A stretch of DNA of 13,459 nt, taken from a virus. Location of the stretch: UHGV virus genome UHGV-0077154; one strand, given 5' to 3'. Positions within the stretch are counted from its first letter, which is position 1; each line of letters opens with the position of its first letter. The translations under genes and the position numbers were made by a program. This document shows positions 1,283 to 13,435 of this stretch, piece by piece. The notes under the pieces are model-generated. The model did not search any database. It was not told the origin of the DNA and was given only the letters and a program-made list of their open reading frames with translations.

Positions 1283-2101
1283 TTATTCAGAAAACCAAAT
1301 TTCTGGCCGTCTAAACTCCTTATTCTCAATAAAAAACAGAATATCTTTCCAGGCTTCTTCATTTTCTTCCCAGAATTTTTGTTTTTCATTCATTGTAAGG
1401 ACTTTACTATCATCTATTAACTTCTTGAGAATAGCAGGGATATCTTTATAGGGTTTTTTCCAGAAGGCATTACGTAATTCTTCAATTTCTGCATTTGCAT
1501 CCCGAACGGGTTTTAGAAGTTCAAGCTGTTTTTCTGTATCGGTAATAGGTTTATTTCCAACCCACTGATGATAGATTTTGCTAGCTTCTTCATGATGACC
1601 CCGAAGAATTGTTATTATTGTTTTTGAGAGTAACGAGCACATGTCAAAAGTAGTAAAGTAAAACCAATCGTGTTTGATTGCGGTTAATTCATCTTTTTTA
1701 ACCCCTATTTGTTCAAGTTCACTCGAAATTGAAGATACTAATTTATAAAGATCTTTGTTTGATGTTGCTGTATCTAGGCGTCCGGTTCTGGAGGCTAATG
1801 AAATAGCTACTTCAGAAATAGGTAAGGAAACTTTTCTTAAACTATCTAAAACTTTTTCAGCATCGTTAATAGTATCTCTTAATTTTGCCTCCATGCCTAA
1901 GAGCTTTATTTCATGCCATTCAAATTGAGTAAGTACCATCAACCCGAAGCCTGTTACAATGACAACAGTCCCTTCAGTTGCTCCTATTGTCAGAGTTACA
2001 ATTACACCAGCGCCTATAAGTAGCAATGCAATGAAAAACAAAAAATTCTTTATCCATTTATTTTTTAGCATATCACTGTCACCATTACGATTAAATTTCA
2101 T
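1283..2101 (-). CDS. AT-rich membrane protein, 272 aa, two N-terminal TM helices plus a helical cytoplasmic domain; function unknown
   Basis: Long uninterrupted ORF in very AT-rich DNA (19 G+C in the 60 nt at 1381-1440). Hydrophobic segments are FLFFIALLLIGAGVIVTLTIGA and VVIVTGFGLMVLTQF, and the remainder is charged and helical. The start is uncertain (ATG 2101 has no clear SD; the internal Met at codon 11 follows GGTGA). Confidence 0.75.
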   Translation of the reverse strand: MKFNRNGDSDMLKNKWIKNFLFFIALLLIGAGVIVTLTIGATEGTVVIVTGFGLMVLTQFEWHEIKLLGMEAKLRDTINDAEKVLDSLRKVSLPISEVAISLASRTGRLDTATSNKDLYKLVSSISSELEQIGVKKDELTAIKHDWFYFTTFDMCSLLSKTIITILRGHHEEASKIYHQWVGNKPITDTEKQLELLKPVRDANAEIEELRNAFWKKPYKDIPAILKKLIDDSKVLTMNEKQKFWEENEEAWKDILFFIENKEFRRPEIWFSE

Positions 2102-2124
2102 CCAATATGAAGTAAAGTAAGTAA

Positions 2125-2334
2125 CTATTTTTCGTTCTCTGATGCCTCAAACGTCTTGGAGTGAGGGCAGGACTGGGAGCGCGTCACCAGCGTGAACAGA
2201 TAAATGTTGCTTTCGTAAGTGCAAAGCCGTTTTCCGCCCTGTAACTCTTGTTCGTCGGGGTTGCTCATGGTGATTTTTCCTGCATGAGCCGCCAGCGGCA
2301 GCAGTGCCACAACAAATAGTAAAATTTTCTTCAT
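2125..2334 (-). CDS. Small secreted protein (about 69 aa) with a Sec signal peptide
   Basis: MKKILLFVVALLPLAAHA/GK is a classic n-h-c signal peptide with an AxA cleavage motif, and the mature part has two Cys. The ORF track starts at GTG 2340; I prefer ATG 2334. It lies 23 nt upstream of, and co-oriented with, the 272-aa gene. Confidence 0.55.
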   Translation of the reverse strand: MKKILLFVVALLPLAAHAGKITMSNPDEQELQGGKRLCTYESNIYLFTLVTRSQSCPHSKTFEASENEK

Positions 2335-3325
2335 TTCCACAACCTGCCCCGTAGGTGTCCCGGCTCTTTATCCTCCAAGTTTACATTCTCCTGTTGAAAA
2401 TATCCCCGGCTCTGTTGGTGATCTGCTAGACCGTCAGCCCAGGCCCTCGGTGAAAAGCGCTTTTCTTCGCCAAATATCGCTACGTTATGCCTTCAGCGAC
2501 ACGCCTCACTGCAACAAGCAGTGCAGTTACACAATGCTGCTTTGGGCTGAGGCAAGGGAGATAACTTGATGTTTTGAAGTGCCTCTGTTCACTAATTGTA
2601 CAACCATTTAACATATTGTATCTTATAAGTACTTGACTGGAATGGTCAGGTATTGCTTTTCGGAGCGTTGATGCGAAGCGGAGTACACAACAACGATTTG
2701 ATCAACAGAAGGAAAGCATTCGGGAGGATTTGAGGTGAGTTCTCTTGTTCAAGGATTTTGGATGAGTTTGTCCGGTCACCACACAATTTCAGGTTTCAGG
2801 CCTTTGAAGCTGCCAGCGCATCTAACACGATGAAAGAGCATTTTTCTCTTTATCAGCAGAAAAAGAGCTACTACGGCGACGTTACCACAACGGGGTGAAG
2901 AACTATCGTCACCTGGCGAAATTCTCCCGCCCTTGCAGGTCACGGATACGTACCTTTTCCCGCACCAGCGCAAGCCTTCTCACCAATAGCCCCGTATGCT
3001 CCACCAGAAGCGCTACAGCGCGTCATCTCCACACAATTGTAAACTACACACCCATAGCACAGCGCCCCGCTGAGAAGCTCTGACACGCCCAGAAATGGAT
3101 GGTTTTTCGTTGATTTTGCGAAGAAAATTAATTTTTTCGGTATGGAAGGGCGGATCGGTAAACTGGTTTGACACGCATTTGGTTGACATATTTAACGCAT
3201 CCAGCCCCTGCGCGGGTTCGTTGTGTATCCGATACCATAACGATCACCACACCACACAGGCGAGCCAGTGACAACAGACAGGATTTTCTAGCAATTAACC
3301 GCAATTAACAGGTATTAAAGCTCTA

Positions 3326-3697
3326 TTATTTCCCGCCGAAAATCCAACCGATGATGGCACCGATTATCGCAGAGCGGGTCTCACCTGCTGCTCCTTTGAG
3401 AACGTTAATAACTGCATCGCCTGCACCAGGTGCCTGCTGTTGAAGTAAATTCAAACCACGAGGTGTTAACTTGGCGGCGGTATCCATGTCGGTTGAAGAG
3501 ATTATCTCCGTGTAACCCATATCGCTGAGAGCCTGGAGTGTGTTGCAAAGCAGGTCAATCTGAGTTCTGTCTCCTCTGGGCTTCCAGCCGAAGTCTGAAA
3601 ATTCGAAAGAAGAGTAAGCCGGATAGTCCGCAAACAGTTTCACCAGGATTCCAGTTGCCATCTCGTTAAAGCTGTCTTTGCCTTGGACGAATTCCAT
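3326..3697 (-). CDS. 123-aa protein with a C-terminal hydrophobic Gly/Ile-rich anchor; transcribed divergently from the control region
   Basis: ATG at 3697 has an AGGA SD 6 nt upstream (minus-strand AAAAGGAAACATT-ATG). The composition looks protein-like. The C-terminus SAIIGAIIGWIFGGK looks like a tail anchor or glycine-zipper helix. Confidence 0.7.
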   Translation of the reverse strand: MEFVQGKDSFNEMATGILVKLFADYPAYSSFEFSDFGWKPRGDRTQIDLLCNTLQALSDMGYTEIISSTDMDTAAKLTPRGLNLLQQQAPGAGDAVINVLKGAAGETRSAIIGAIIGWIFGGK

Positions 3698-3820
3698 AAT
3701 GTTTCCTTTTGTTCACTGATTGAACGAGGTTACTTACTTACCGCTGGAAGTGCCAGCAAGAAGGGATGACGCTGTGCTGTTAATCACTAGGTGAGGGGGT
3801 GTCTTCTACCAGAGGGGAGG

Positions 3821-3915
3821 CCATTGGTAAAGAATCTTAACTAACGTTAGTAAAGATCCTTAACCAGCCATTAGTAAAGAATCTTAACTAACCATTGGTA
3901 AAGATACTTAACCGT
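3821..3915. repeat. Four tandem ~23-24 bp iterons (CCATTGGTAAAGAATCTTAACTAA-type)
   Basis: Copies start at 3821, 3845, 3868 and 3892: ccattggtaaagaatcttaactaa / cgttagtaaagatccttaaccag / ccattagtaaagaatcttaactaa / ccattggtaaagatacttaaccgt. They are contiguous with no spacers. Confidence 0.85.
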
Positions 3916-3917
3916 AC

Positions 3918-3959
3918 TATATCACTTACTAGATCATCTTTAGATCACTGCCTATATCA
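3918..3959. repeat. Four helically phased heptamers TATATCA / TAGATCA / TAGATCA / TATATCA
   Basis: Heptamers start at 3918, 3930, 3941 and 3953 (spacing 12, 11, 12 bp), immediately after the iterons. The two inner copies contain GATC. Confidence 0.6.
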
Positions 3960-4130
3960 GTAAAAACATTAAGGTCAAAGACAGATTGAACATGCGTTCA
4001 ATTGTTGGAGTTGTTAGGTGTTATGTAGACAGGCTTCGCCTGTTTACACTCTGTGTGGAAGACAAGCGCAAGCGCGTCAGTCCAATGTGGATCGAGCACG
4101 GCGCAGAGGAGCTTTAAACGCGACGTAACT

Positions 4131-4160
4131 CCCCCCTTGGAGGGGCGGCGCACCCCCCTC
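4131..4160. promoter_or_regulatory. GC-rich dyad with a lambda-cosN-like core (candidate cos/packaging site)
   Basis: GGGCGGCGCACC (4143-4154) compared with the lambda cohesive end GGGCGGCGACCT recalled from memory: the first 8 nt are identical and the rest aligns with a 1-nt indel. It is flanked by the inverted hexamers GAGGGG (4140-4145) and CCCCTC (4155-4160), and it is intergenic. An 8-mer match alone is near chance level. Confidence 0.3.
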
Positions 4161-4296
4161 AACCCTGCGCTCTAACAACATCTCTAGAGTCCTCTATCGC
4201 GTTCTGAGCGTCTTTCTCTTATTGTTGGTGACTTTGTACCGTTCCGCTTACAGCGTTGAATCTGAAGCGTCTGAGAGCGTTTTGTGATTACGGGGC

Positions 4297-4410
4297 TTGA
4301 CAAAGAAAATGTATGTGTATAAGGTTGCGGGGTATTGACACAAAACATTTATATCTCTTTATTCATTAAATGAGTTATCGGTTGACAAAGAAACTAATTT
4401 ACTATAAAAT
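4297..4410 (+). promoter_or_regulatory. Three tandem consensus -35 boxes/promoters upstream of the rightward operon
   Basis: TTGACA occurs at 4297-4302 (15-bp spacer, then TATAAG 4318-4323), at 4335-4340 (weak -10 TTTATT 4358-4363) and at 4382-4387 (17-bp spacer, then TAAAAT 4405-4410). The first and third share TTGACAAAGAAA. Confidence 0.55.
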
Positions 4411-4468
4411 ATATATTATCAAATGAGATGATTTTATGACTAAACAATAACTTAAATAGGAGAGATAC

Positions 4469-4897
4469 ATGGGGAAACCTGTTCTGTTCGATTTCTCGAG
4501 CGCCACTGCCTCAGAGATTGTCGCTGCAATCGATGCAAAAATTACCACAGCTCAAAATCTGCACGCCTTCCGCACTCGTATGGGTGGTGCCAAGAAAGCC
4601 GATAAGCTCTATCCAGCTACTCGCGAAGCACTGAACATCATTAAACGCCTGCGTCAGCAAGCGAAAGACGCAAAAATCATCCGGGATATTCTTAAACCGT
4701 ACTCAGCAGAGTTGGCAAAAGGCCGTGATGTTATGGAAATCATTGAACCAGTGCTGTCTGCCTGGCGTGTCTATTACGCCTCTCATGGCATTGGTTTGAT
4801 GAATGAGCAGATCCTCCTGTTGAAAATGATTGAGGCGGGCGGTGAACTCGAAGGTATTACCGGAAAACCCATTCCCGAACTGACCACAACCGAATAA
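4469..4897 (+). CDS. 142-aa helical protein of unknown function; first gene downstream of the triple promoter
   Basis: AGGAGA SD (4458-4463) lies 5 nt before the ATG. The composition is clean and protein-like. I recognise no motif. Confidence 0.8.
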   Translation: MGKPVLFDFSSATASEIVAAIDAKITTAQNLHAFRTRMGGAKKADKLYPATREALNIIKRLRQQAKDAKIIRDILKPYSAELAKGRDVMEIIEPVLSAWRVYYASHGIGLMNEQILLLKMIEAGGELEGITGKPIPELTTTE

Positions 4898-5078: not shown

Positions 5079-5264
5079 GTGAAACTGTCACTAGACGATG
5101 AAACATATGCAATTTTACGCGAAGAATCTGACCGTTTGGGGATGCCAGTTCCGAGGATGATCCGGAACATGTGCCAGAACCTGGCGAAACACATTCAGAA
5201 ACGCAATGAACAACCACTGACGAACCCACAGGGAGAACAACATGACAGAGACAGTAGAAGCTAA
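5079..5264 (+). CDS. Ribbon-helix-helix (CopG/Arc-type) DNA-binding protein, about 61 aa
   Basis: KLSLDDETYAILREESDRLGMPVPRMIRNMCQNLAKHI fits beta-strand/helix/helix RHH architecture. AGGAG (5066-5070) is 8 nt from GTG 5079 but only 2 nt from the ATG 5073 used by the ORF track. The 3' end overlaps the next gene by 23 nt. Confidence 0.65.
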   Translation: MKLSLDDETYAILREESDRLGMPVPRMIRNMCQNLAKHIQKRNEQPLTNPQGEQHDRDSRS

Positions 5265-5886
5265 TCTGCCAGACGAACAGGACGGCACTTTTGATCGCAA
5301 TTATACCGAGATTAAGCGCTTGAAAGTGTTGGTTGCCGACGATGGAACTAAAATTCCGTTCAGCGCGAACATGAAAGTAGTCTACGCCTACCTCTACACC
5401 TTCCAGACAAATAAAGAGCGGCGGAACTACCCTGAGCCAATTTATCCTAATATGGAAATAATCGCGTGGGAAAATGGCATTACTAAACCCACGGCGCAAA
5501 AGGCTGTGGATGATTTGATGCGGGCGGGGGTGTTGATTAAGGACCAAATTCAGGTTGGGAGCGGGTTTAAGTCCAACAATTACGTTGTGTTGAAACCCTC
5601 GAAAGTGGTGGCGCGTGGCGTCACTCCACCGCATCCAAATGCTTCTAAATATTCAACTGCCGAGGAGAGCGGTAAGAATGAACAAAAACGTGCTGTGGTG
5701 GAACCTGCCGCGCCTGTTGCTGGAAAACCAGACGGCATACCTGTTGTGGATATTCCTGTCGATGCTGATGTACCTGCCGATGATGATGCGGTGATCGGAG
5801 ACTTTAGTGATCCTTACCTTGATGCTGAAGTAAAAGAATGGCAGAAACAAAAACATAGTGGAGGATTGAATTGTGTGAACACGTAA
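5242..5886 (+). CDS. Winged-helix DNA-binding protein with an acidic/proline-rich C-terminal tail, 214 aa (possible origin-binding/initiator or regulator)
   Basis: GGGAG SD (5231-5235). The core VVYAYLYTF...MEIIAWENGITKPTAQKAVDDLMRAGVLIK looks like a wHTH of the plasmid/phage Rep-type helix-turn-helix family. The C-terminus PVVDIPVDADVPADDDAVIGDF looks disordered. Confidence 0.75.
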   Translation: MTETVEANLPDEQDGTFDRNYTEIKRLKVLVADDGTKIPFSANMKVVYAYLYTFQTNKERRNYPEPIYPNMEIIAWENGITKPTAQKAVDDLMRAGVLIKDQIQVGSGFKSNNYVVLKPSKVVARGVTPPHPNASKYSTAEESGKNEQKRAVVEPAAPVAGKPDGIPVVDIPVDADVPADDDAVIGDFSDPYLDAEVKEWQKQKHSGGLNCVNT

Positions 5887-6531: not shown

Positions 6532-6892
6532 AAATGCTCTGTTTGCCGCTATGCACGGCATGACACCGGAGGAATACGAACTCCAAAAGGCGCGGGACAA
6601 TCTCAAGAGCGTCACCGATAACTTTCTGGATCAACATCCGGAGTTGCTCAAATCAGCCTCGTCTGACACCCCCACGGATAAACGGGGCGAAGCCCTCTCG
6701 CCAATGCGAGACACCTTTGGTGCTGAACAACGGATTAAAAAATCTTTGGGCGCTGATAGCCGTCCGGCGGTAAGTCATACCGCTGATCACATCGATCCTG
6801 AAATGCTGGCGAAAGCTAAAGCAGCGGCTGCTGCTCTCGCAAAATCTGACCCTGATCGTTACGGCAATATCATCAAGCAGCAGGGGGTGTGA
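6512..6892 (+). CDS. 126-aa acidic/Ala-rich protein of unknown function, translationally coupled to the 715-aa gene
   Basis: GGAGA (6497-6501) lies upstream of the ATG. The stop TGA (6890-6892) overlaps the ATG at 6892 (TGATG). The sequence looks largely helical or disordered. Confidence 0.7.
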   Translation: MTLNSIKNALFAAMHGMTPEEYELQKARDNLKSVTDNFLDQHPELLKSASSDTPTDKRGEALSPMRDTFGAEQRIKKSLGADSRPAVSHTADHIDPEMLAKAKAAAAALAKSDPDRYGNIIKQQGV

Positions 6893-9036
6893 TGGCGAAT
6901 GGCAATATCATAGTGACTGAAACCGTAAACGAGGTGACATGGTCTGTCGATCGGACAGCCTTCGGTCGCGCCCTGAAAGCTGTTAAATCCATCAAGGCTG
7001 CTCATGAGAAACCAGCTAAGGCGCTTGAGAAGGCCCAGAAGCGGACCGTCCAGAGTGAAGGCAAAGCCGCACTAGCAGCAGCGAAAGCCCAGACAGCGAA
7101 GCTACGCCAGGCTGAACAATTGTCTAAACAGCAACAGAAACAAGCTCAGATACAAGCCAAAATGGAGCGGGACGCAGTAGCCCACGCCAATAAAATGACC
7201 TCATTACAGGCGCGTCAGTTATCCCAACAGGAACAGGCAGCACGTCAGAATGCCCGTTTAGCAGCAATATCTGAAAAGGTGAGACAGGCGAGTCGCTCCC
7301 GCGCGATGACCTACACCCCAAACATGGGCGGTCAACATTACGATCCTGGTCTTGTTTCCCGTCAGACTGACGCAATGAACCGTGGTCACGGCGCTGTTGC
7401 TGCCGACATCGCAGCCACCAAAAAGGCGATGGCCCTGGAGGAGAAGCGCCAGCGTGAGAAAGAGGCAGGACTTAAGCGTGAGGTGACTTATTACAACAGT
7501 TTGCGCCGTAGCGCTTTGACTCTGGCAAACGTGAACGGCGCTGACGTTGCAACCCGTTATAAAGCGATCAGTGCAGCAAAAGAGGCACTCAAAGCCCAGA
7601 AAGAAGAGCGTTATACGGTCGAAGAGACCCGTTTCGAAATGGCCCGTATCACTACAGAATTACGCAAGCAGGCTCGTCTGCAACAACGTATTACCCGTGA
7701 GCAGAAAGCCGCAGGTGTTCGTGCTGGTCGTGTACGCACAGAAAGCCGTGGTGGAAGTGTAGGTCTGGCTGCCGCTGGTGTTGTTGGTGGTGCGGCGTTA
7801 GTAGGTAGTATGGGCGTTTCTCGTGTTGGTCAGACCCTTCAGGGAAGCCTTGAGCGTTCTCGCGATGTGAAAAAACTCCAGCAGTATGGGATCAGCAACC
7901 TTGAGTTCGCAGCACTTCAGGATCTATCAATGAGCCGTGTTGGTTACTCACTGAGTGCTGACAAGCTGGCTGACCTCAACAAGGACACAACCGAAAAGGC
8001 CGGGGAATTGCTGAATACTGGCTCTTTCAAACGTAACAAGAAAACTGGACAGGTGAATTTCAGCGGCGGTGGTGAGTTTGCAGATATCATCAATAACGTA
8101 CTGACCTCCACCAACGGCAACCAGAAGGTAGCCCAAAAGGTGATCGGGGAACTGCAAAAACTGGATTTTCCAACATTTATCACTTATCTAAAGCAATTAC
8201 AGAAAACTTTCGGCTGGACTGATCGACAGGTGCGACACCTGGCCGAGGCTGTGAATGATGGTTCGGTCTTCCTCGAAGTGTTCAATGATGAGGGGCAGGG
8301 ACTTATCCAGCGTATGAATCAACTCGCTTCTGAAGGATGGACCCTATCTGATGCACAGCAGGCCAACCTTGATAAGCTGGCAGCTTTGGGTGCTGAGTAC
8401 AGTCGCGTGCAGATGTCGCTTGCTGACCACTTCAGCGCCAGCTTCGTGCAGGGTCTGGGAGAATATGCAGCTAATACTGACACTCTACGTCAGAAGATGA
8501 CTGGACTGATCCCAATTTCCGATGCTCTCGGCGTTGCCCTTGGTGAGCTAACCACCAACATTCTCTCCTTCGCTGGTCGAGTCGGTGAAGAACTCAAGAA
8601 AGGCGCGACACTGCCGGATGCAGTCTACAACACCGTAGTGGATGACTCTGCAAATAGCACCGCCGATTGGATTAAGGAAAAGACCGGATTTGATCCACGC
8701 AGCATCGGTCAGACGCTCAAACAGATTTACCCGTGGCTGGATAGTTTCGCTCCGAGCAATATCGGCTCAGGCACGGCGTATAACGATCCAGCGCTAGCGT
8801 TGAATGTTCCTGGTTTCAACTCAATACAACCCCAGCAACCAACGTTTACGATTCCGACAATTGACAGCATGACGCAGCGACAGCCGATTCCTGTTGCGGT
8901 CACTGGCGAAGCTGAGATTAAACTCTCACCGCTTGATATTAACGTGAATGACGGCGCTATTAACGGTTTGATTGATACAAAACTGAGGAGCTATGAGCAG
9001 GCACAGAACAACATGATCCTTGGTATTGCTCAATGA
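6892..9036 (+). CDS. 715-aa coiled-coil + glycine-zipper TM + tape-measure-like domain protein
   Basis: Roughly residues 30-290 are Q/A/K/R-rich heptad-like sequence. GGSVGLAAAGVVGGAALVGSMGV is a Gly-zipper hydrophobic segment. The next ~200 aa (LADLNKDTTEKAGELLNTGS...GGGEFADIINNV...LKQLQKTFGWTDRQVRHLAEAVNDGSVFLEVFNDEGQGL...LSDAQQANLDKL) resemble the conserved core of phage tail tape-measure proteins as I recall it. Confidence 0.8.
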   Translation: MANGNIIVTETVNEVTWSVDRTAFGRALKAVKSIKAAHEKPAKALEKAQKRTVQSEGKAALAAAKAQTAKLRQAEQLSKQQQKQAQIQAKMERDAVAHANKMTSLQARQLSQQEQAARQNARLAAISEKVRQASRSRAMTYTPNMGGQHYDPGLVSRQTDAMNRGHGAVAADIAATKKAMALEEKRQREKEAGLKREVTYYNSLRRSALTLANVNGADVATRYKAISAAKEALKAQKEERYTVEETRFEMARITTELRKQARLQQRITREQKAAGVRAGRVRTESRGGSVGLAAAGVVGGAALVGSMGVSRVGQTLQGSLERSRDVKKLQQYGISNLEFAALQDLSMSRVGYSLSADKLADLNKDTTEKAGELLNTGSFKRNKKTGQVNFSGGGEFADIINNVLTSTNGNQKVAQKVIGELQKLDFPTFITYLKQLQKTFGWTDRQVRHLAEAVNDGSVFLEVFNDEGQGLIQRMNQLASEGWTLSDAQQANLDKLAALGAEYSRVQMSLADHFSASFVQGLGEYAANTDTLRQKMTGLIPISDALGVALGELTTNILSFAGRVGEELKKGATLPDAVYNTVVDDSANSTADWIKEKTGFDPRSIGQTLKQIYPWLDSFAPSNIGSGTAYNDPALALNVPGFNSIQPQQPTFTIPTIDSMTQRQPIPVAVTGEAEIKLSPLDINVNDGAINGLIDTKLRSYEQAQNNMILGIAQ

Positions 9037-9132
9037 TGAAACAGAGGGTGGCGAATTCGTCGCCCCTATCTCAACACCACAATGCGTATGTATCAAATTT
9101 AGCGACAAATCAAATACTTTTCGTGAAATTTG

Positions 9133-9161
9133 TTGTAAATGATAATCATTCGTGTTAAAAT
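9133..9161 (+). promoter_or_regulatory. Candidate sigma70 promoter with extended -10, heading the capsid-gene leader
   Basis: -35 TTGTAA (9133-9138), 17-bp spacer, TGTTAAAAT (9153-9161; TGn + TAAAAT), inside an AT-rich stretch just after the 715-aa gene. Confidence 0.45.
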
Positions 9162-9511
9162 AATATACAAGGTGAATTACAACAGCCAAATGTTTTTCCC
9201 TTCTCCTTAGGAATCAAAGTGCGCTTTTCCCAGAGCGCCTTTTCTCATACAGCCAATATCCGCACCCTCTCACGGTAAGGTTAGGCCATTGCCGCTGGCT
9301 GTATCAGAAAAGCATCGCAGAGCGATTAGCCAGCAGGCTAACCCGTTCTCGTGTGTAGAAAATTTCCACCTAAGGTGGATTTGCCAAAAGTCCTGTCCTC
9401 CTCGGCGGGCTGTCAGCCGGACACTAACGGCATCAGGTGGCAACGTTTTTGGGTCTCCTTACCCATTCTTTGGAGCGTTGCCGCCTCCTCATTCCTACCA
9501 GTGAAATTCAC

Positions 9512-9542
9512 ACCGGACGACTCTCCGTCCGGTCACTTTTTT
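9512..9542 (+). terminator. Intrinsic terminator candidate t1 in the capsid leader
   Basis: Stem ACCGGACG (9512-9519) pairs with CGTCCGGT (9526-9533), loop ACTCTC. CAC follows, then a T6 run (9537-9542). Confidence 0.5.
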
Positions 9543-9557
9543 CATCGGAACAATTCT

Positions 9558-9610
9558 AAAGGCTGGCCCTGTCGCCGTTTACGGCTCAAGCAGGCGCTGG
9601 CCTTTTGTTT
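9558..9610 (+). terminator. Intrinsic terminator candidate t2 (long GC-rich compound hairpin + U-run) just before the capsid-gene RBS
   Basis: 9561-9571 pairs with 9591-9602 (one bulge, two G-U pairs), with an inner hairpin GCCG-TTTA-CGGC (9574-9585). AAA (9558-9560) can pair with the following T-run, and TTTTGTTT lies at 9603-9610. Confidence 0.55.
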
Positions 9611-9645
9611 ACATAGCTATGTGAAATTTAACGGGAGTTAATTAT

Positions 9646-9987
9646 ATGAAAATGGGAAGCCTTGAGCGCTCTTACAATGACGTGATCGCGTATGCAGCCG
9701 ATCCGAATTTTGACCGCAAGACTATTACTGTCGATCTAGCTGTAGAAGTCCAGCCGGGTAGTTGCATTACCAGCACTGGAGCTGCTTATGTCTCTGGTGA
9801 TGACTGCCTGCTGGTCCTGAGCCACCACAGGGCCGAAGATGCTGCTCATATCATCGTTGCTGATCGCGGGATTTACATCAAACAAGACACCATCACCGCT
9901 GTTATGGGCGCTACCGCTGGCGCTAATGCTATTGCCGCACTCACCAAAACGGGCGCAATCCGTACTAGCGCACCGGACGCAGAATAA
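9646..9987 (+). CDS. Head decoration protein, lambda gpD-like, 113 aa
   Basis: GGGAG SD (9633-9637) is 8 nt from the ATG. Size, position immediately upstream of the gpE-like gene, and the pattern ...GDDCLLVLSHHRAEDAAHIIVADRGIYIKQDTI...TGAIRTS parallel lambda gpD (...[31 protein letters not shown]...GTAISIV, from memory). Confidence 0.6.
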   Translation: MKMGSLERSYNDVIAYAADPNFDRKTITVDLAVEVQPGSCITSTGAAYVSGDDCLLVLSHHRAEDAAHIIVADRGIYIKQDTITAVMGATAGANAIAALTKTGAIRTSAPDAE

Positions 9988-10005
9988 TAATAAGGAGAAG
10001 ACAAC

Positions 10006-11040
10006 ATGGGACTATCAACCAATTTCAGCTACGCGGATTACACCAACACCTTTGTGAACATGGATGCAAAGAACACTTTGCTGTCCACGCTTAATGTTTT
10101 CAGTGATCGTCAGACTTCTGCAAGTCCGAAGGTGAGCCTCGATATCATTGATGAAGTCGCTCAGAAGGTGGCAAGCTCTGTTAATCGTTACGGTTCAGAG
10201 TGGTCAACCATTCCTAAGCGTAGCGCTAGCAATCACCTGATTGAAGCTCCACTTTATGCTTTTCAAGACCGGATTACAGCGGCAGACGTGCAACCATATC
10301 GCAAACCAGGCTCCGACCTGCAAATGTCTGTAATGGATGCGGTCACTTCTTCTGCTGTCGCAATGCACGATAAGTACATGCGTACTAAAGAGAAAATTTT
10401 CGCTGACGCACTCTTCCGAAATACTGTCGAAGCGACCTACACCCAGCAGCCGATCATTTCCTGGGAAGATGAATTTGGATACCAACAGGCAACCGGAACG
10501 ATCAAAACCAGCGTTAGCTCTGGTGACCCACTTCGCAGCCTCGATGATGCAGTAACCGCTGCTAAAGTGCGCATGGGGGGCCTGGCTGGTCAGCTTGATG
10601 GATTTATCCTGTTTGCAGGTAGCAATGTTTATCGCGGCATTAAGTATCACCCTGATGTTCGTCAGAATGTTCAGTTCGGTGTGCTTGATCGGGATGTTCT
10701 GTTTAATAAAGAAGTGCTTCCGGCATTCTCAACATTCATCATTGAAAATGTTCGAGTGGTGGAGGTCACGGATCAGGCACTTTACGGAATTGGTCCGGAT
10801 GAATCCTTCCTGGTTCCACGTTTCAGCCGCCCACTGTCCTCTGATATTGCTCTACCTTTCGGTTATGTAGCAACGGCTACCAGCCGCAATCTTGATCTGG
10901 CATTTGCTGATCCGGTTGATTTCCGTATCTGGAGCGTACAGGACAAGTTTAAGAACGTGGAGCTATTCGCGGAAAGCTCAATCTTGCCTGTGGTGTACCG
11001 TCCGGATTTCGTTACAAAACTGACGAACGACGCAGCGTAA
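10006..11040 (+). CDS. Major capsid protein, lambda gpE family-like, 344 aa
   Basis: AAGGAGAA SD. The length is close to lambda gpE (341 aa). It sits directly after a D-like gene. The C-terminal ...ESSILPVVYRPDFVTKL resembles gpE ...SAPLMLLADPDEFVSVQL (from memory). Confidence 0.75.
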   Translation: MGLSTNFSYADYTNTFVNMDAKNTLLSTLNVFSDRQTSASPKVSLDIIDEVAQKVASSVNRYGSEWSTIPKRSASNHLIEAPLYAFQDRITAADVQPYRKPGSDLQMSVMDAVTSSAVAMHDKYMRTKEKIFADALFRNTVEATYTQQPIISWEDEFGYQQATGTIKTSVSSGDPLRSLDDAVTAAKVRMGGLAGQLDGFILFAGSNVYRGIKYHPDVRQNVQFGVLDRDVLFNKEVLPAFSTFIIENVRVVEVTDQALYGIGPDESFLVPRFSRPLSSDIALPFGYVATATSRNLDLAFADPVDFRIWSVQDKFKNVELFAESSILPVVYRPDFVTKLTNDAA

Positions 11041-12092: not shown

Positions 12093-12118
12093 AAAAAGGC
12101 GCAATAGCGCCTTTTTTT
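12093..12118. terminator. Bidirectional intrinsic terminator shared by the cassette and int
   Basis: AAAAA-GGCGC-AATA-GCGCC-TTTTTTT: a 5-bp GC stem (12098-12102 / 12107-12111) flanked by an A5 run and a T7 run. The int stop codon (12117-12119) lies in the T-run. Confidence 0.8.
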
Positions 12119-13313
12119 ACAAATCCGGATAACACGCCAACTCGACATACTCCGATAGTTCCTTCATCCCTGGCCCTTTGCTGTAGGTTCTGAATGCTTC
12201 GGTTTTCGCTTTTTGTTCGGTATGTCCAGTGATGGCTCCGATCCGTTGTTCTGGCACCCCTGCACGGTCTAAGCAGGTGATGAACATTCCCCGTAAGCTG
12301 TGAAAACATTGCCGATCTGTAGCGGTTGGCAATGTGCTGTCACGTAGCCGGGTAAACTTTTGGCTGTACCACGGACCCCGCTTACCATCCTTCCGAATGA
12401 TGTTATTAGACTGAGCCAGAAGATATTCACCGCTGTTATTTGCCAGATGCTTATCAACAATCCCCATCAGCAGCGAGTGGATCGGAACATACCGCACCCC
12501 GGCTACAGTCTTGGACTTGCTGACAAAGAAACATCTGACACCCTCCAACATTACAATTTCATCCCGCTTGATGCTGGCGATCTCATCAAGTCGCATTCCT
12601 GAATACAGCCCAATCAGTATGACATCGCGTAGAACGTCATCCGCTTCTCTGACAAGTGTTTGCAATTGTTCAGGTTCAAACGGCTGATAACTTTCTATCG
12701 TGCGACGTGCTTCGAGGTTATGACCGTGAAACGGGTTACTGTCGGGGATTGCGTCATATCGACGTTTGGCGAACTCGTACAGACTCCCTAAAGAGGTTAG
12801 CCAGTTTTGCACGGTCTGCGGTGCTGCCTTTTTCTGTTGGCCTTCAATGAAGTCTGTAACCGTTCTGCGTCCTATCTTGTTCAGACTAATATCAACTTTA
12901 CCGATACTCTGGAGAAATACTTCCACCGCTCGCGCGGATTTGCTGAGTGTGGAAAATGCCCGACGTTCACTATAAACCGTCATGTATTCATCACGGATGA
13001 CTGCCAACGTTGGGATAGGGGAGACTGCTACAGGCGTACTCTTGGCCTGTTTGATTGTGGTGTGGAGTGTGGTGATCGCATTCTGGATGCGAATGTCTTC
13101 CCGATCAGGATTCAACAGGGCTTTCAGATTGTTGAACTCAATCAACATGTGATTTCTGAAGTGACGAGCCTTAAGGATGTCTTTTGTCCCGGTGGATTTT
13201 CGCCAGGCTCGTTTGTTGTCAAACAGGTGACGCATGTACGCAGGTACAAAGACCTGAAAGATCCATACGCCCGAATGACTTTGAAAAAGATACTGATTGT
13301 TCTTGATAGACAT
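12117..13313 (-). CDS. int: Tyrosine recombinase / phage-type integrase, 398 aa
   Basis: Catalytic signature visible: ...YSGMRLDEI (Arg), HSLRGMF (His-x-x-Arg), ITGHTE (His), FRTYSKG (Tyr). It sits next to attR with its 5' end facing the tRNA-derived repeat. Confidence 0.95.
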   Translation of the reverse strand: MSIKNNQYLFQSHSGVWIFQVFVPAYMRHLFDNKRAWRKSTGTKDILKARHFRNHMLIEFNNLKALLNPDREDIRIQNAITTLHTTIKQAKSTPVAVSPIPTLAVIRDEYMTVYSERRAFSTLSKSARAVEVFLQSIGKVDISLNKIGRRTVTDFIEGQQKKAAPQTVQNWLTSLGSLYEFAKRRYDAIPDSNPFHGHNLEARRTIESYQPFEPEQLQTLVREADDVLRDVILIGLYSGMRLDEIASIKRDEIVMLEGVRCFFVSKSKTVAGVRYVPIHSLLMGIVDKHLANNSGEYLLAQSNNIIRKDGKRGPWYSQKFTRLRDSTLPTATDRQCFHSLRGMFITCLDRAGVPEQRIGAITGHTEQKAKTEAFRTYSKGPGMKELSEYVELACYPDL

Positions 13314-13375: not shown

Positions 13376-13435
13376 AACGAGAGCTTCCCAAGCTCTATAC
13401 GAGGGTTCGATTCCCTTCGCCCGCTCCAGTCTCCT
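13376..13435. repeat. attR copy of the direct repeat: displaced 3' fragment of tRNA-Gly (13376-13428) plus 7 nt; not a functional tRNA
   Basis: Identical to 2-61. The sequence upstream (..GGGATGGAGT) diverges from the tRNA body (..AATGGTAG), so the acceptor 5' strand and D-arm are missing. Confidence 0.9.

Follow-up and report, generated by a model that had tools for sequence, protein, structure and literature searches.

The capsid-operon control region and its relatives

The DNA analysed here is the whole 13,459-nucleotide window of the virus genome UHGV-0077154, to which all coordinates refer. The segment 9037–9645 is the capsid-operon control region of a 13.4-kb integrative, satellite-like element. 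It lies downstream of a gene encoding a 715-amino acid protein and directly precedes the capsid module, which is read from the + strand. The module begins with a gene for a 113-amino acid protein (ATG at 9646, Shine-Dalgarno sequence GGGAG at 9634–9638) and continues with the gene of the major capsid protein (10006–11040, Phage_cap_E). The sequence-only reading of this DNA had labelled the first of these two genes ‘D-like’. This label could not be confirmed, as the 113-amino acid protein has no match in Pfam, PHROG or PDB and its AF2 model, with a pLDDT of 38, is unusable for assignment. The major capsid protein gave no tblastn match in the phage collection searched.

About 60 related elements with the same layout are found in E. 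coli, other Enterobacteriaceae and metagenomes. In every relative having enough upstream sequence, an extended −10 promoter is followed by a long folded leader, one or two intrinsic terminators and the capsid genes, while the integration sites differ. The relatives form three deeply diverged groups (A, B and C), with major capsid protein identities of 24–98%. The early genes of the L011-type elements have the reverse orientation with respect to the capsid module, and the promoter, leader and capsid genes remain joined. The leader RNA is present in 41 of 5,426 complete E. coli genomes (about 0.8%) and in other Enterobacteriaceae. No description of the satellite family or its leader RNA was found in the literature searched. 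DNA similarity searches of the promoter block and the leader against 50,697 phage records returned nothing, and a search for a helper with the other non-coding parts of the element gave no match.

The upstream end of the segment (9037–9132) is located 5′ of the promoter and contains the end-of-gene hairpin that belongs to the 715-amino acid protein gene (GGGTGGCGAATTCGTCGCCCC, 9047–9067, + strand). This hairpin carries no T-run and is outside the leader RNA. A relative, L005, keeps it with altered stem bases, and L002 and L003 have a different hairpin in the same place.

An extended −10 promoter with a palindromic spacer

The leader promoter (9133–9161, + strand) consists of a −35 element TTGTAA (9133–9138), a 17-nt spacer and an extended −10 element TGTTAAAAT (9153–9161; TG-T-TAAAAT, ending at 9161). 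It scores 9 out of 12 plus the TG extension in a promoter scan and sits exactly where the sequence-only reading had put it. Transcription is predicted to start at about 9167–9169. The pattern TTG(C/T)(A/G)AA-17-TGnTAAA(A/C)T is present in 47 of the 61 leaders examined, in all three groups; the 14 leaders with no match are L037, L043, L072 and eleven loci of group C, for which the stretch searched was limited to 760 nt 5′ of the first capsid gene. Between 8800 and 10100, the scan found four promoter-like sites against 1.7 expected. None is located between the second terminator (t2, see below) and the ATG, in agreement with the earlier claim, and the leader promoter is the sole promoter-like entry into the capsid genes by this consensus scan.

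The earlier description of the spacer and the −10 element was right, but an operator-like feature within the spacer had been overlooked. Positions 9138–9150 form a perfect palindrome, AATGATAATCATT, which is unique in the window and represents a candidate operator. All six E. coli elements retrieved, which between them represent all three groups, carry it unchanged or with one base altered (L001, L053). L038 and L039 carry a variant palindrome, AATGGTTACCATT, and the other spacer classes are non-palindromic. AATGATAATCATT equals the central 13 nt of the Fur-box consensus: 9135–9153 agrees with this consensus, GATAATGATAATCATTATC, at 14 of 19 positions, the central 13 being identical. Other family members have spacers unrelated to this Fur-box-like one. 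The palindrome probably adds a second layer of control through a DNA-binding protein.

The leader is a structured RNA read from the + strand

The leader had been described as non-coding and 600 nt long. The first part of this description stands, but the length does not: as the RNA is predicted to start near 9167–9169, the predicted products, counted from about 9168, are about 375 nt (to the first terminator, t1) and about 443 nt (to t2). The folded RNA itself measures roughly 350 nt. The predicted transcript (9166–9612) folds at −171.6 kcal/mol with a z-score of −7.16, and 0 of 100 shuffled sequences fold as well; the z-score of the reverse strand is −2.76. Its features are kept with compensatory changes in about 60 independent relatives. 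The structure is under selection on the + strand, and the leader is a real structured RNA, which bears out the proposal of a highly structured non-coding leader with its own promoter and tandem terminators.

No alignment with the other leaders is possible for that of group C, which is just as structured (z = −7.8) and also displays CU-rich hairpin loops. Across all three groups, sequence is shared in the promoter cassette and not in the RNA. Rfam 15 contains nothing that matches the leader at gathering score or, in 9000–9700, at E ≤ 10, and the same is true of seven relatives. The Rfam matches that were obtained are limited to a flanking tRNA, a TPP riboswitch and IS009, all outside the elements, and weak scores for RsaE (E = 2) and RybB (E = 2.9) reflect only C-rich motifs and terminators. 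The leader is a new RNA family inside a known regulatory layout.

We also considered that the segment might contain a DNA-level site (a replication origin or cos/pac) or a small protein gene instead of an RNA. Its position directly 3′ of a large gene resembles that of the origin in the Staphylococcus island model, its position directly 5′ of the head genes resembles that of cos in lambda, and a mechanical list of open reading frames (ORFs) contains frames of 40–96 amino acids here. However, folding is strand-asymmetric and pairing is kept through G·U pairs. No direct repeats are present in 9037–9645, and the four 24-nt iterons of the element are located away from the leader, at 3820–3916. No similarity to any phage cos region was found. 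Loosely similar to lambda cosN (9 of 12 positions), the 9047–9067 hairpin shows the variation of an end-of-gene hairpin, is outside the RNA and has no phage similarity. The ORFs mostly start with GTG or TTG and have no ribosome site, and none has a constant position, frame or length from one leader type to the next, so their earlier dismissal as not credible was justified. A DNA site or a small protein is therefore largely refuted, and we hold either to be extremely improbable.

Modular helices and a pseudoknotted 3′ domain

All elements of the RNA described below are on the + strand. The 5′ hairpin P1 (9169–9202; AAGGUGAA ... UUUCCCUU) is derived from the minimum free energy fold, and its pairing is possible in both 5′ variants. 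A CU-rich motif, CUUCUCCUUA (9200–9209), is the perfect complement of the capsid-gene ribosome site, UAAGGAGAAG (9991–10000). Next, the P2 hairpin (GCGCU..AGCGC) and the adjoining CUUUUCUCAU form a promoter-proximal terminator-like site identified by the scan (9221–9248), which we call t0. Its hairpin (9221–9238) is followed by CTTTTCTCAT, about 80 nt into the transcript. This third terminator-like site was missing from the earlier description, which listed t1 and t2 correctly. By a heuristic criterion, 24 of 43 distinct leaders have a counterpart of t0 (a hairpin of about −9 to −15 kcal/mol and a T-rich tail), with at least three different stem sequences at this position.

The U-run of t0 doubles as the 5′ strand of P3 (9239–9312), a long helix between CUUUUCUCAUACAGCC (9239–9254) and GGCUGUAUCAGAAAAG (9297–9312) that encloses a conserved apical region with the motif CUCUCAC. 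In A8, an alignment built from sequence only, the inner 8 bp of P3 are 100% paired, compared to 22–48% in slid controls; three pairs show compensatory changes, and G·U pairs are present. A GCCUCUUUU-like run that could be mistaken for an rrn/lambda boxA forms the 5′ strand of this covarying helix and is thus not a free boxA. P3 is followed by a variable linker of small hairpins (9313–9364), for which other modules substitute in the alignments of relatives, and by P4 (9365–9379), the palindrome TCCACCTAAGGTGGA, which folds into a 6-bp stem with a 3-nt loop. A hairpin is formed at this place in 14 of 16 distinct variants (−7.6 to −10.8 kcal/mol, at least five stem sequences), and it ends at GGA or GGG before UUUGCC.

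The conserved 3′ domain (9378–9498), described by covariance model R1 (148.7 bits), contains GAUUUGCCA and a tail, CUCCUCAUUCCU. It also comprises the Pa hairpin (9392–9397/9404–9409, loop CUCCUC), Pb (9411–9414/9420–9423), an H-type pseudoknot GCCG/CGGC (9416–9419/9428–9431), and Pc, in which GGTGGCAACG (9436–9445) pairs with CGTTGCCGCC (9476–9485) with one G·U pair and which carries an apical hairpin (9451–9464, loop CUCCUU). The 15-bp palindrome at 9365–9379 and the 10-bp stem at 9436–9445/9476–9485 had both been noticed before, and both are real, but they belong to one covarying domain whose pseudoknot had been overlooked.

R1 gives a single + strand match per locus at a constant place in 49 relatives, which include every relative of groups A and B. 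Within the domain, 95.9% of cells are paired, compared to 74.8% in shuffles, and changes on both sides are found in 19 of the 24 modelled pairs. In a MAFFT-only alignment (A5), Pb and the pseudoknot are 99.3% paired, with compensatory changes in five of eight pairs. Furthermore, the helices keep their pairing via G·U pairs that would be A·C mismatches on the opposite strand. Three long-range pairings seen in single folds (UAGGAAU/AUUCCUA, GGUAAGG/CCUUACC, and a t1 arm with the pseudoknot region) are not kept in relatives, and a candidate ops/RfaH site, GGCGGGCTGTCA, sits inside Pa and is not conserved.

Predicted tandem terminators precede the capsid genes

The predicted intrinsic terminator t1 (9512–9542, + strand; scan) has an 8-bp G+C-rich stem followed by CAC and six Ts, with the hairpin at 9512–9533 and CACTTTTTTC after it. 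The second, t2 (9558–9610, + strand; fold and heuristic), is a long bipartite imperfect hairpin (9558–9603) followed by UUUUGUUU; its tail is TTTTGTTTA, and the heuristic assigns it −23.6 kcal/mol in the window. Both hairpin-plus-T-run terminators, the second ending 23 nt before the Shine-Dalgarno sequence, are thus where they had been reported. Six terminator-like sites were found by the scan in 8800–10100, compared to 1.3 expected. Most group A leaders keep t1, and all of them except L008 keep t2 (−22 to −28 kcal/mol). The L007-type leaders have a hairpin with no T-run in place of t1. In group B, unrelated hairpin-plus-T-run terminators stand in for t1 and the second terminator differs from t2, and at least two terminator-like sites precede the first capsid gene of group C. 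That terminators are kept despite unrelated sequences points to selection for termination at this position.

In the window, the pseudoknotted domain is directly 5′ of t1, with 14 nt to the t1 stem. This arrangement would suit a riboswitch-type attenuator, in which a small ligand or a tRNA decides whether the RNA at t1 folds as a terminator or as an antiterminator. There is, however, no conserved alternative pairing between the domain and the t1 stem, no Rfam riboswitch matches the leader, and in the L007-type leaders t1 is replaced. Moreover, about 15 nt separate the domain from the first terminator in the window, compared to about 100–150 nt in group B, where unrelated hairpins are inserted. 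Such variation is compatible with a processive mechanism and does not suit a switch in which aptamer and terminator overlap. The comparative data make a riboswitch unlikely, and we regard it as very improbable.

CU-rich loops and a possible role in trans

Four CU-rich single-stranded motifs are displayed by the RNA, namely 9200–9209, the Pa loop, the Pc apical loop and the tail at 9486–9497. They raise the possibility, which we consider quite unlikely, that the leader is a stand-alone trans-acting RNA gene with a double terminator, whose CU-rich loops pair with ribosome sites of capsid or helper mRNAs. It would then be an immunity or interference RNA like P4 CI, P1 c4 or PLE SviR, and transcription of the capsid genes would be secondary. 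Several observations favour such a role: (i) comparable CUCC loops are found in the non-homologous leader of group C, (ii) the window and the L004- and L007-type leaders show 10–13 nt of perfect complementarity to the capsid-gene ribosome site, (iii) a terminator hairpin with a U-tail makes an sRNA-like 3′ end, and (iv) elements with capsid proteins of only 33% identity have exchanged the R1 domain, which shows that this domain is independent of the capsid protein sequence.

The complementarity is 10 nt in the window, a value reached by 6 of 500 shuffles, and 13 nt in the L007-type leaders (0 of 500), but it is at chance level in L001, L003, L008 and L013, which makes the CU-rich 9200–9209 motif a lead only. 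Co-evolution of the leader motif with the capsid ribosome site was rejected, as the group swap test gave a weak difference (8.5 nt for own pairs compared to 7.5 nt for swapped pairs). Furthermore, the capsid genes accompany the RNA in every one of about 60 loci and have no other promoter. A role in cis is thus needed in any case.

The C4 and CI RNAs are 70–80 nt long and are processed out of a leader. P4 CI and P1/P7 c4 (RF01695) resemble the present RNA in being regulatory RNAs in the leader of the operon that they control, within a satellite in the case of P4, and in having loops complementary to downstream ribosome-site regions, a property that only some members of our family display. Unlike them, the leader precedes capsid genes and not replication or antirepressor genes, and Rfam C4 (RF01695) gave no match at gathering score, none at E ≤ 10 in 9000–9700 and none in the seven relatives. 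By analogy only, the repetition of one short motif, here CUCC, in several hairpin loops is reminiscent of the CsrB/RsmZ decoys, but CUCC is the complement of the Shine-Dalgarno sequence and not the GGA site of CsrA.

A proposed termination gate for capsid expression

The layout is kept in three groups, even where the early genes are inverted, which makes control of the capsid genes by read-through a sound inference, as the sequence-only reading had suggested: capsid expression would appear to need passage through the terminators. Our preferred model, to which we give nearly even chances, is that the region gates transcription of the capsid operon by termination and that the folded RNA acts in cis. 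In this model, the transcript that the conserved extended −10 σ70 promoter is predicted to start near 9168 folds into P1–P3 and the pseudoknotted 120-nt 3′ domain. In the absence of a helper phage, most polymerases would halt at t1 or t2, the capsid genes would be silent, and the uninduced products would be two non-coding RNAs, about 375 and 443 nt long. Helper activity would render polymerases terminator-resistant once they had passed the leader (processive antitermination), so that they reach the capsid genes. The favoured cis element would be the folded RNA, chiefly its pseudoknotted 3′ domain, which may confer or receive the polymerase modification, either alone, in a put-like manner, or as the binding site of a helper or host factor.

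Two considerations weigh against this choice. If the RNA antiterminated on its own, the terminators would serve no purpose unless regulation acted on the promoter, and, with a shared promoter cassette and an unshared RNA, a promoter-loaded factor like Q would fit at least as well. Such a factor would be a Q-like protein of the helper that binds the spacer DNA and loads onto polymerase paused after the start, so that t1 and t2 are ignored. In lambda, the Q-binding element is located between −35 and −10, and the promoter cassette studied here, including its spacer, is the one element that is near-unchanged across groups A, B and C. The layout also matches that of pR′–tR′, with a constitutive-looking strong promoter, a short terminated RNA and late genes, and a −10-like pause hexamer, CAAGGT (A2/T6), is found just past the predicted start in the window. 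This hexamer, the bases of which also form the 5′ strand of P1, is CAAGGT or TAGGGT (A2/T6) in many leaders, but is not kept in other promoter variants, which have TAGGGA, TAAGGG or TTGGGT. Besides, the promoter block is absent from phage records: no helper pR′ sharing it was found at E ≤ 10 among the 50,697 records, a search that very short sites would escape. The palindrome in the spacer is more suggestive of a dimeric repressor than of a Q site, and Q alone leaves the strong covariation in the 120-nt pseudoknotted domain unexplained. If Q-type control applied, which we think unlikely, the leader would be the counterpart of lambda 6S RNA, and selection on its structure would reflect another function, exerted in uninduced cells, like that of StxS, the terminated RNA of the late region of Stx phages, which also acts in trans (PMC7547250).

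The resemblance to lambdoid late regions proposed in the sequence-only reading therefore holds for the promoter and terminators, i.e. a strong promoter, a short terminated non-coding RNA directly 5′ of structural genes and read-through for late expression, but nothing specific to Q was found: the pause hexamer varies, and the promoter block was not found among the phage records. This leader is 2–4 times longer than its lambdoid counterparts and has a selected complex fold with a pseudoknot, there are two terminators, and the promoter spacer is a perfect palindrome. No conserved σ-dependent pause and no recognisable Q-binding element were found here, and, unlike lambdoid phages, the element has no Q gene.

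HK022 put, the other precedent that had been invoked, is about 70 nt long and consists of two stem-loops of 35 nt each with a triplex; the leader has a 120-nt pseudoknotted domain and a 150-nt 5′ domain. Terminator read-through by put is factor-independent and involves contact with the zinc-binding domain of the RNA polymerase β′ subunit. A search of HK022 22000–33600 with R1, filters off, gave a best E of 0.36, not at the presumed putR stretch, which we assume to be just downstream of cro (put is unannotated in the record, and putL was not located). By this search, the leader is no homologue of put, and its architecture differs. It shares with put, a cis-acting folded RNA between a promoter and downstream terminators that works at variable distance (PMC9378689), the position of a folded RNA between promoter and terminators at variable spacing.

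Implications for phage satellites

We consider it possible, though doubtful, that the leader represents a new class of processive-antitermination or helper-sensing RNA in a phage satellite. The nascent pseudoknotted domain with its CUCC loops would then bind RNA polymerase or a helper-phage protein and give rise to terminator resistance, so that the satellite would time capsid production to the helper; once terminated, the same RNA may perhaps serve as an anti-Shine-Dalgarno decoy as well. If so, HK022 put would be the only earlier RNA-based system of this type known from enterobacterial phages, and none would have come from a satellite before.

Irrespective of mechanism, the modular helices, the pseudoknot and the extensive covariation of the leader give good support to a new family of structured RNAs that Rfam 15 lacks. 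Its presence identifies a family of small elements with a major capsid protein of their own. Coupling of the structural genes of a satellite to its helper has been described in few systems, examples being the Delta/Ogr activators of P4 and, in Staphylococcus islands, LexA and late activators. A gate that relies on an RNA and terminators would achieve this coupling in a new way.

The capsid genes within a complete, probably satellite element

The window is one complete integrative element of 13.4 kb, since it is bounded by 59-nt identical direct repeats (2–60 and 13376–13434), each including the 3′ portion of a tRNA-Gly gene; these repeats are its attachment sites. It encodes a lambda-O-like replication initiator (5242–5886), a DUF4145 protein, a 715-aa protein (6889–9036), a 113-aa first capsid-module protein (9646–9987), a major capsid protein of the Pfam Phage_cap_E type (10006–11040) and, on the minus strand, an integrase (12117–13313). 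Among the ORFs scanned, those up to 11040, none matched a terminase, a portal or a further tail protein. From this gene content we infer that the element is a phage satellite. The tape-measure likeness of the 715-aa protein is limited to its first ~130 residues (PHROG E = 3e-17; PDB 9cuy E = 0.004), and apart from this protein tail genes are absent from the ORFs scanned. A tblastn search of 50,697 phage records with the major capsid protein gave nothing at E ≤ 1e-5, and this capsid lineage appears to be restricted to small elements of this kind. The 113-aa protein, called D-like in the sequence-only reading and only a putative decoration protein, had no match in Pfam, PHROG or PDB, and its single-sequence AlphaFold model (pLDDT 38) was unusable.

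Four head-to-tail copies of an ~24-nt unit, GCCATTGGTAAAGAATCTTAACTAAC, at 3820–3916 are probably the iterons of the replication origin. They sit within a 2.3-kb stretch (2101–4469) nearly devoid of credible genes; ~2.1 kb is unannotated at the matching place in relatives, and one relative, L011, has different iteron-like repeats at 8390–8520. The top sigma-70 promoter match of the window (4382–4410, TTGACA-17-TAAAAT, 11/12) lies upstream of the rightward early genes, and TTGACAAAGAAA is repeated 85 nt upstream (4297–4308).

The leader travels with the capsid module

Among 5,426 complete E. coli genomes, 41 carry a relative of the element, with no fewer than three different integration sites between them, and PGAP places no annotation under the leader region. 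Using the major capsid protein, we fetched 74 loci from genome, viral and metagenome collections; their capsid identity to the window is 75–98% in group A, about 33% in group B and about 24% in group C. Every locus with enough upstream sequence has an untranslated stretch of 444–714 nt from the promoter to the first capsid-module gene. Even in group C, whose early operon has the opposite orientation, the leader stays in one block with its promoter and the capsid genes, and the leader is thus part of the capsid module, not of the upstream 715-aa gene. Two copies are decayed: in L012 (9001–9572) the element is cut off within the leader, and in L049 (1500–3711) the first capsid-module gene is broken by IS110- and IS3-type insertions.

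The leader had been proposed to be non-coding, and no ORF keeps its frame, position or length across leader types. It contains no direct repeats, and neither the window nor seven relatives gave a match to any Rfam 15 family.

Selection on a folded RNA

The predicted transcript folds far better than shuffled sequences (z = −7.16, against −2.76 for the opposite strand), and alignments display conserved single-stranded islands between helices of differing yet complementary sequence, with hairpin modules inserted, lost or moved whole among relatives. A covariance model of the 3′ domain (R1), built from ten sequences, scores 148.7 bits at 9378–9498 and has exactly one plus-strand match, at the same place, in each of 49 loci, which are all the group A and B loci with enough upstream sequence; it has no match in group C. 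In the R1-derived alignment, 95.9% of cells are standard pairs (74.8% when shuffled, 30–52% with partners slid), and 19 of 24 pairs changed on both sides. As this alignment is fitted to the model, the pair counts were repeated on sequence-only MAFFT alignments. There, helix Pb (9411–9414/9420–9423), together with a pseudoknot between its loop GCCG (9416–9419) and CGGC (9428–9431), is 99.3% paired, with slid controls at 13–53% and five of eight pairs compensatory. In P3, the long helix on the 5′ side (9239–9254/9297–9312), pairing of the inner 8 bp reaches 100%, with three compensatory pairs and some G·U pairs. The structured leader of the sequence-only reading is borne out, as are two of its specific elements: the 15-nt palindrome (9365–9379) is hairpin P4, where 14 of 16 distinct variants have a hairpin with an identical end point, built from at least five different stem sequences, and the 10-bp stem (9436–9445 with 9476–9485) is the base of hairpin Pc. 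The G·U pairs and the strand-asymmetric folding show the plus-strand RNA, not the DNA, to be the target of selection.

A two-hairpin module, AUUAGCAAC..GUUGCUAA-CCCGUAAACGGG, occupies about 9035–9085 in L002 and about 9370–9420 in L003; it precedes the 3′ domain in some leaders and comes after it in others, and a decayed copy lies at about 9334–9358 of the window. Leader modules are, by all appearances, shuffled by recombination.

Terminators and the proposed gate

Terminators t1 (9512–9542) and t2 (9558–9610) both lie where they had been predicted, and a scan found no promoter from the end of t2 to the ribosome site (9634). In the scan, terminator-like sites number six locally against 1.3 expected. 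By a hairpin-plus-T-run heuristic, at least one strong terminator stands 44–190 nt before the first capsid gene in every leader but L008, where the nearest is about 155–216 nt upstream, and most leaders have two. In group A, t2 is nearly unchanged in all members but L008, and t1 is kept by most; in group B both positions are taken by different terminators, and in group C no fewer than two terminator-like sites precede the first capsid gene. This persistence despite replaced sequences is the strongest argument that termination before the capsid genes is functional, implying that capsid expression would need regulated read-through. Spacing between the 3′ domain and the terminator nearest to it varies from about 15 to about 150 nt, which argues against an overlapping aptamer–terminator switch and for a processive mechanism.

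The promoter-like cassette, the folded RNA and the terminators have been kept together with the capsid genes as a single conserved unit. We tentatively propose, as a plausible reading far from established, that this unit uses termination and antitermination to gate transcription of the capsid genes. The folded RNA would be the favoured cis element because it is under evident structural selection and the terminators always follow it. The notion of an RNA acting in cis is taken from HK022 put, and P4 CI is the source for a regulatory RNA encoded in a satellite's leader. Of the earlier proposal that the capsid genes depend on terminator read-through, the promoter and terminator layout stands, and it is conserved in relatives; no homology to put was found, as R1 matches nothing in HK022 22000–33600, a span that takes in the sequence immediately after cro, where we place putR (put is unannotated in the record, and putL was not located). 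Tested as a put RNA, as a C4/CI RNA and as a riboswitch attenuator, the leader failed each time.

A promoter-proximal terminator-like hairpin, t0 (9221–9248), could release an ~80-nt RNA bearing a CU-rich motif; since its U-run can pair with either an upstream AAAG or a downstream AGAAAAG (helix P3), it is a possible switch.

A role in trans is hinted at by four CU-rich, anti-Shine-Dalgarno-like single-stranded motifs in the leader RNA and by similar CUCC loops in the non-homologous group C leader; as the sole function of the RNA it strikes us as improbable. One of the motifs, CUUCUCCUUA (9200–9209), is the exact complement of the capsid-gene ribosome site (9991–10000), a match reached by 6 of 500 shuffles, and L007-type leaders have a 13-nt complementarity reached by none of 500, both significant; in four other leader types, however, such complementarity is at chance level, and the putative CUUCUCCUUA pairing is therefore only a lead.

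The promoter and its spacer

The extended −10 promoter of the sequence-only reading is present at 9133–9161 (TTGTAA-17-TGTTAAAAT). Its form TTG(C/T)(A/G)AA-17-TGnTAAA(A/C)T recurs in 47 of 61 leaders examined, with all three groups represented; the 14 leaders lacking a match are L037, L043, L072 and eleven group C loci in which only the 760 nt ahead of the first capsid gene were searched. The spacer contains a perfect palindrome, AATGATAATCATT (9138–9150), unique in the window, and this or a one-base variant is present in all six E. coli elements fetched (the window, L001, L002, L003, L011 and L012, from all three groups). It corresponds to the central 13 nt of the 19-nt Fur-box consensus. The L038 and L039 promoters have a second spacer class, AATGGTTACCATT, in which the outer AATG/CATT is kept and the inner bases are changed symmetrically; the remaining spacer classes are not palindromic. 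The natural reading is that the palindromic spacer would be bound by a dimeric DNA-binding protein, candidates being Fur and proteins of the helper or of the element itself, and AATGATAATCATT and AATGGTTACCATT suggest operator and regulator specificity classes.

The window leader has the same layout as the lambdoid late control region, and it is the promoter cassette, not the RNA sequence, that all three groups have in common. Both would suit the main rival to an RNA-based gate, Q-type control at the promoter, which we nevertheless consider unlikely: the −10-like hexamer that follows the start site is not kept in all promoter variants, and no phage in 50,697 records shares the promoter block, the leader or other non-coding parts of the element. 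Nor would such control account for the fold of the RNA, unless the terminated transcript serves a separate function, like StxS of Shiga-toxin phages (PMC7547250).

Both the structured RNA and the conservation of the layout are firmly supported, and the leader RNA is, judged from the comparisons made here, a new family.
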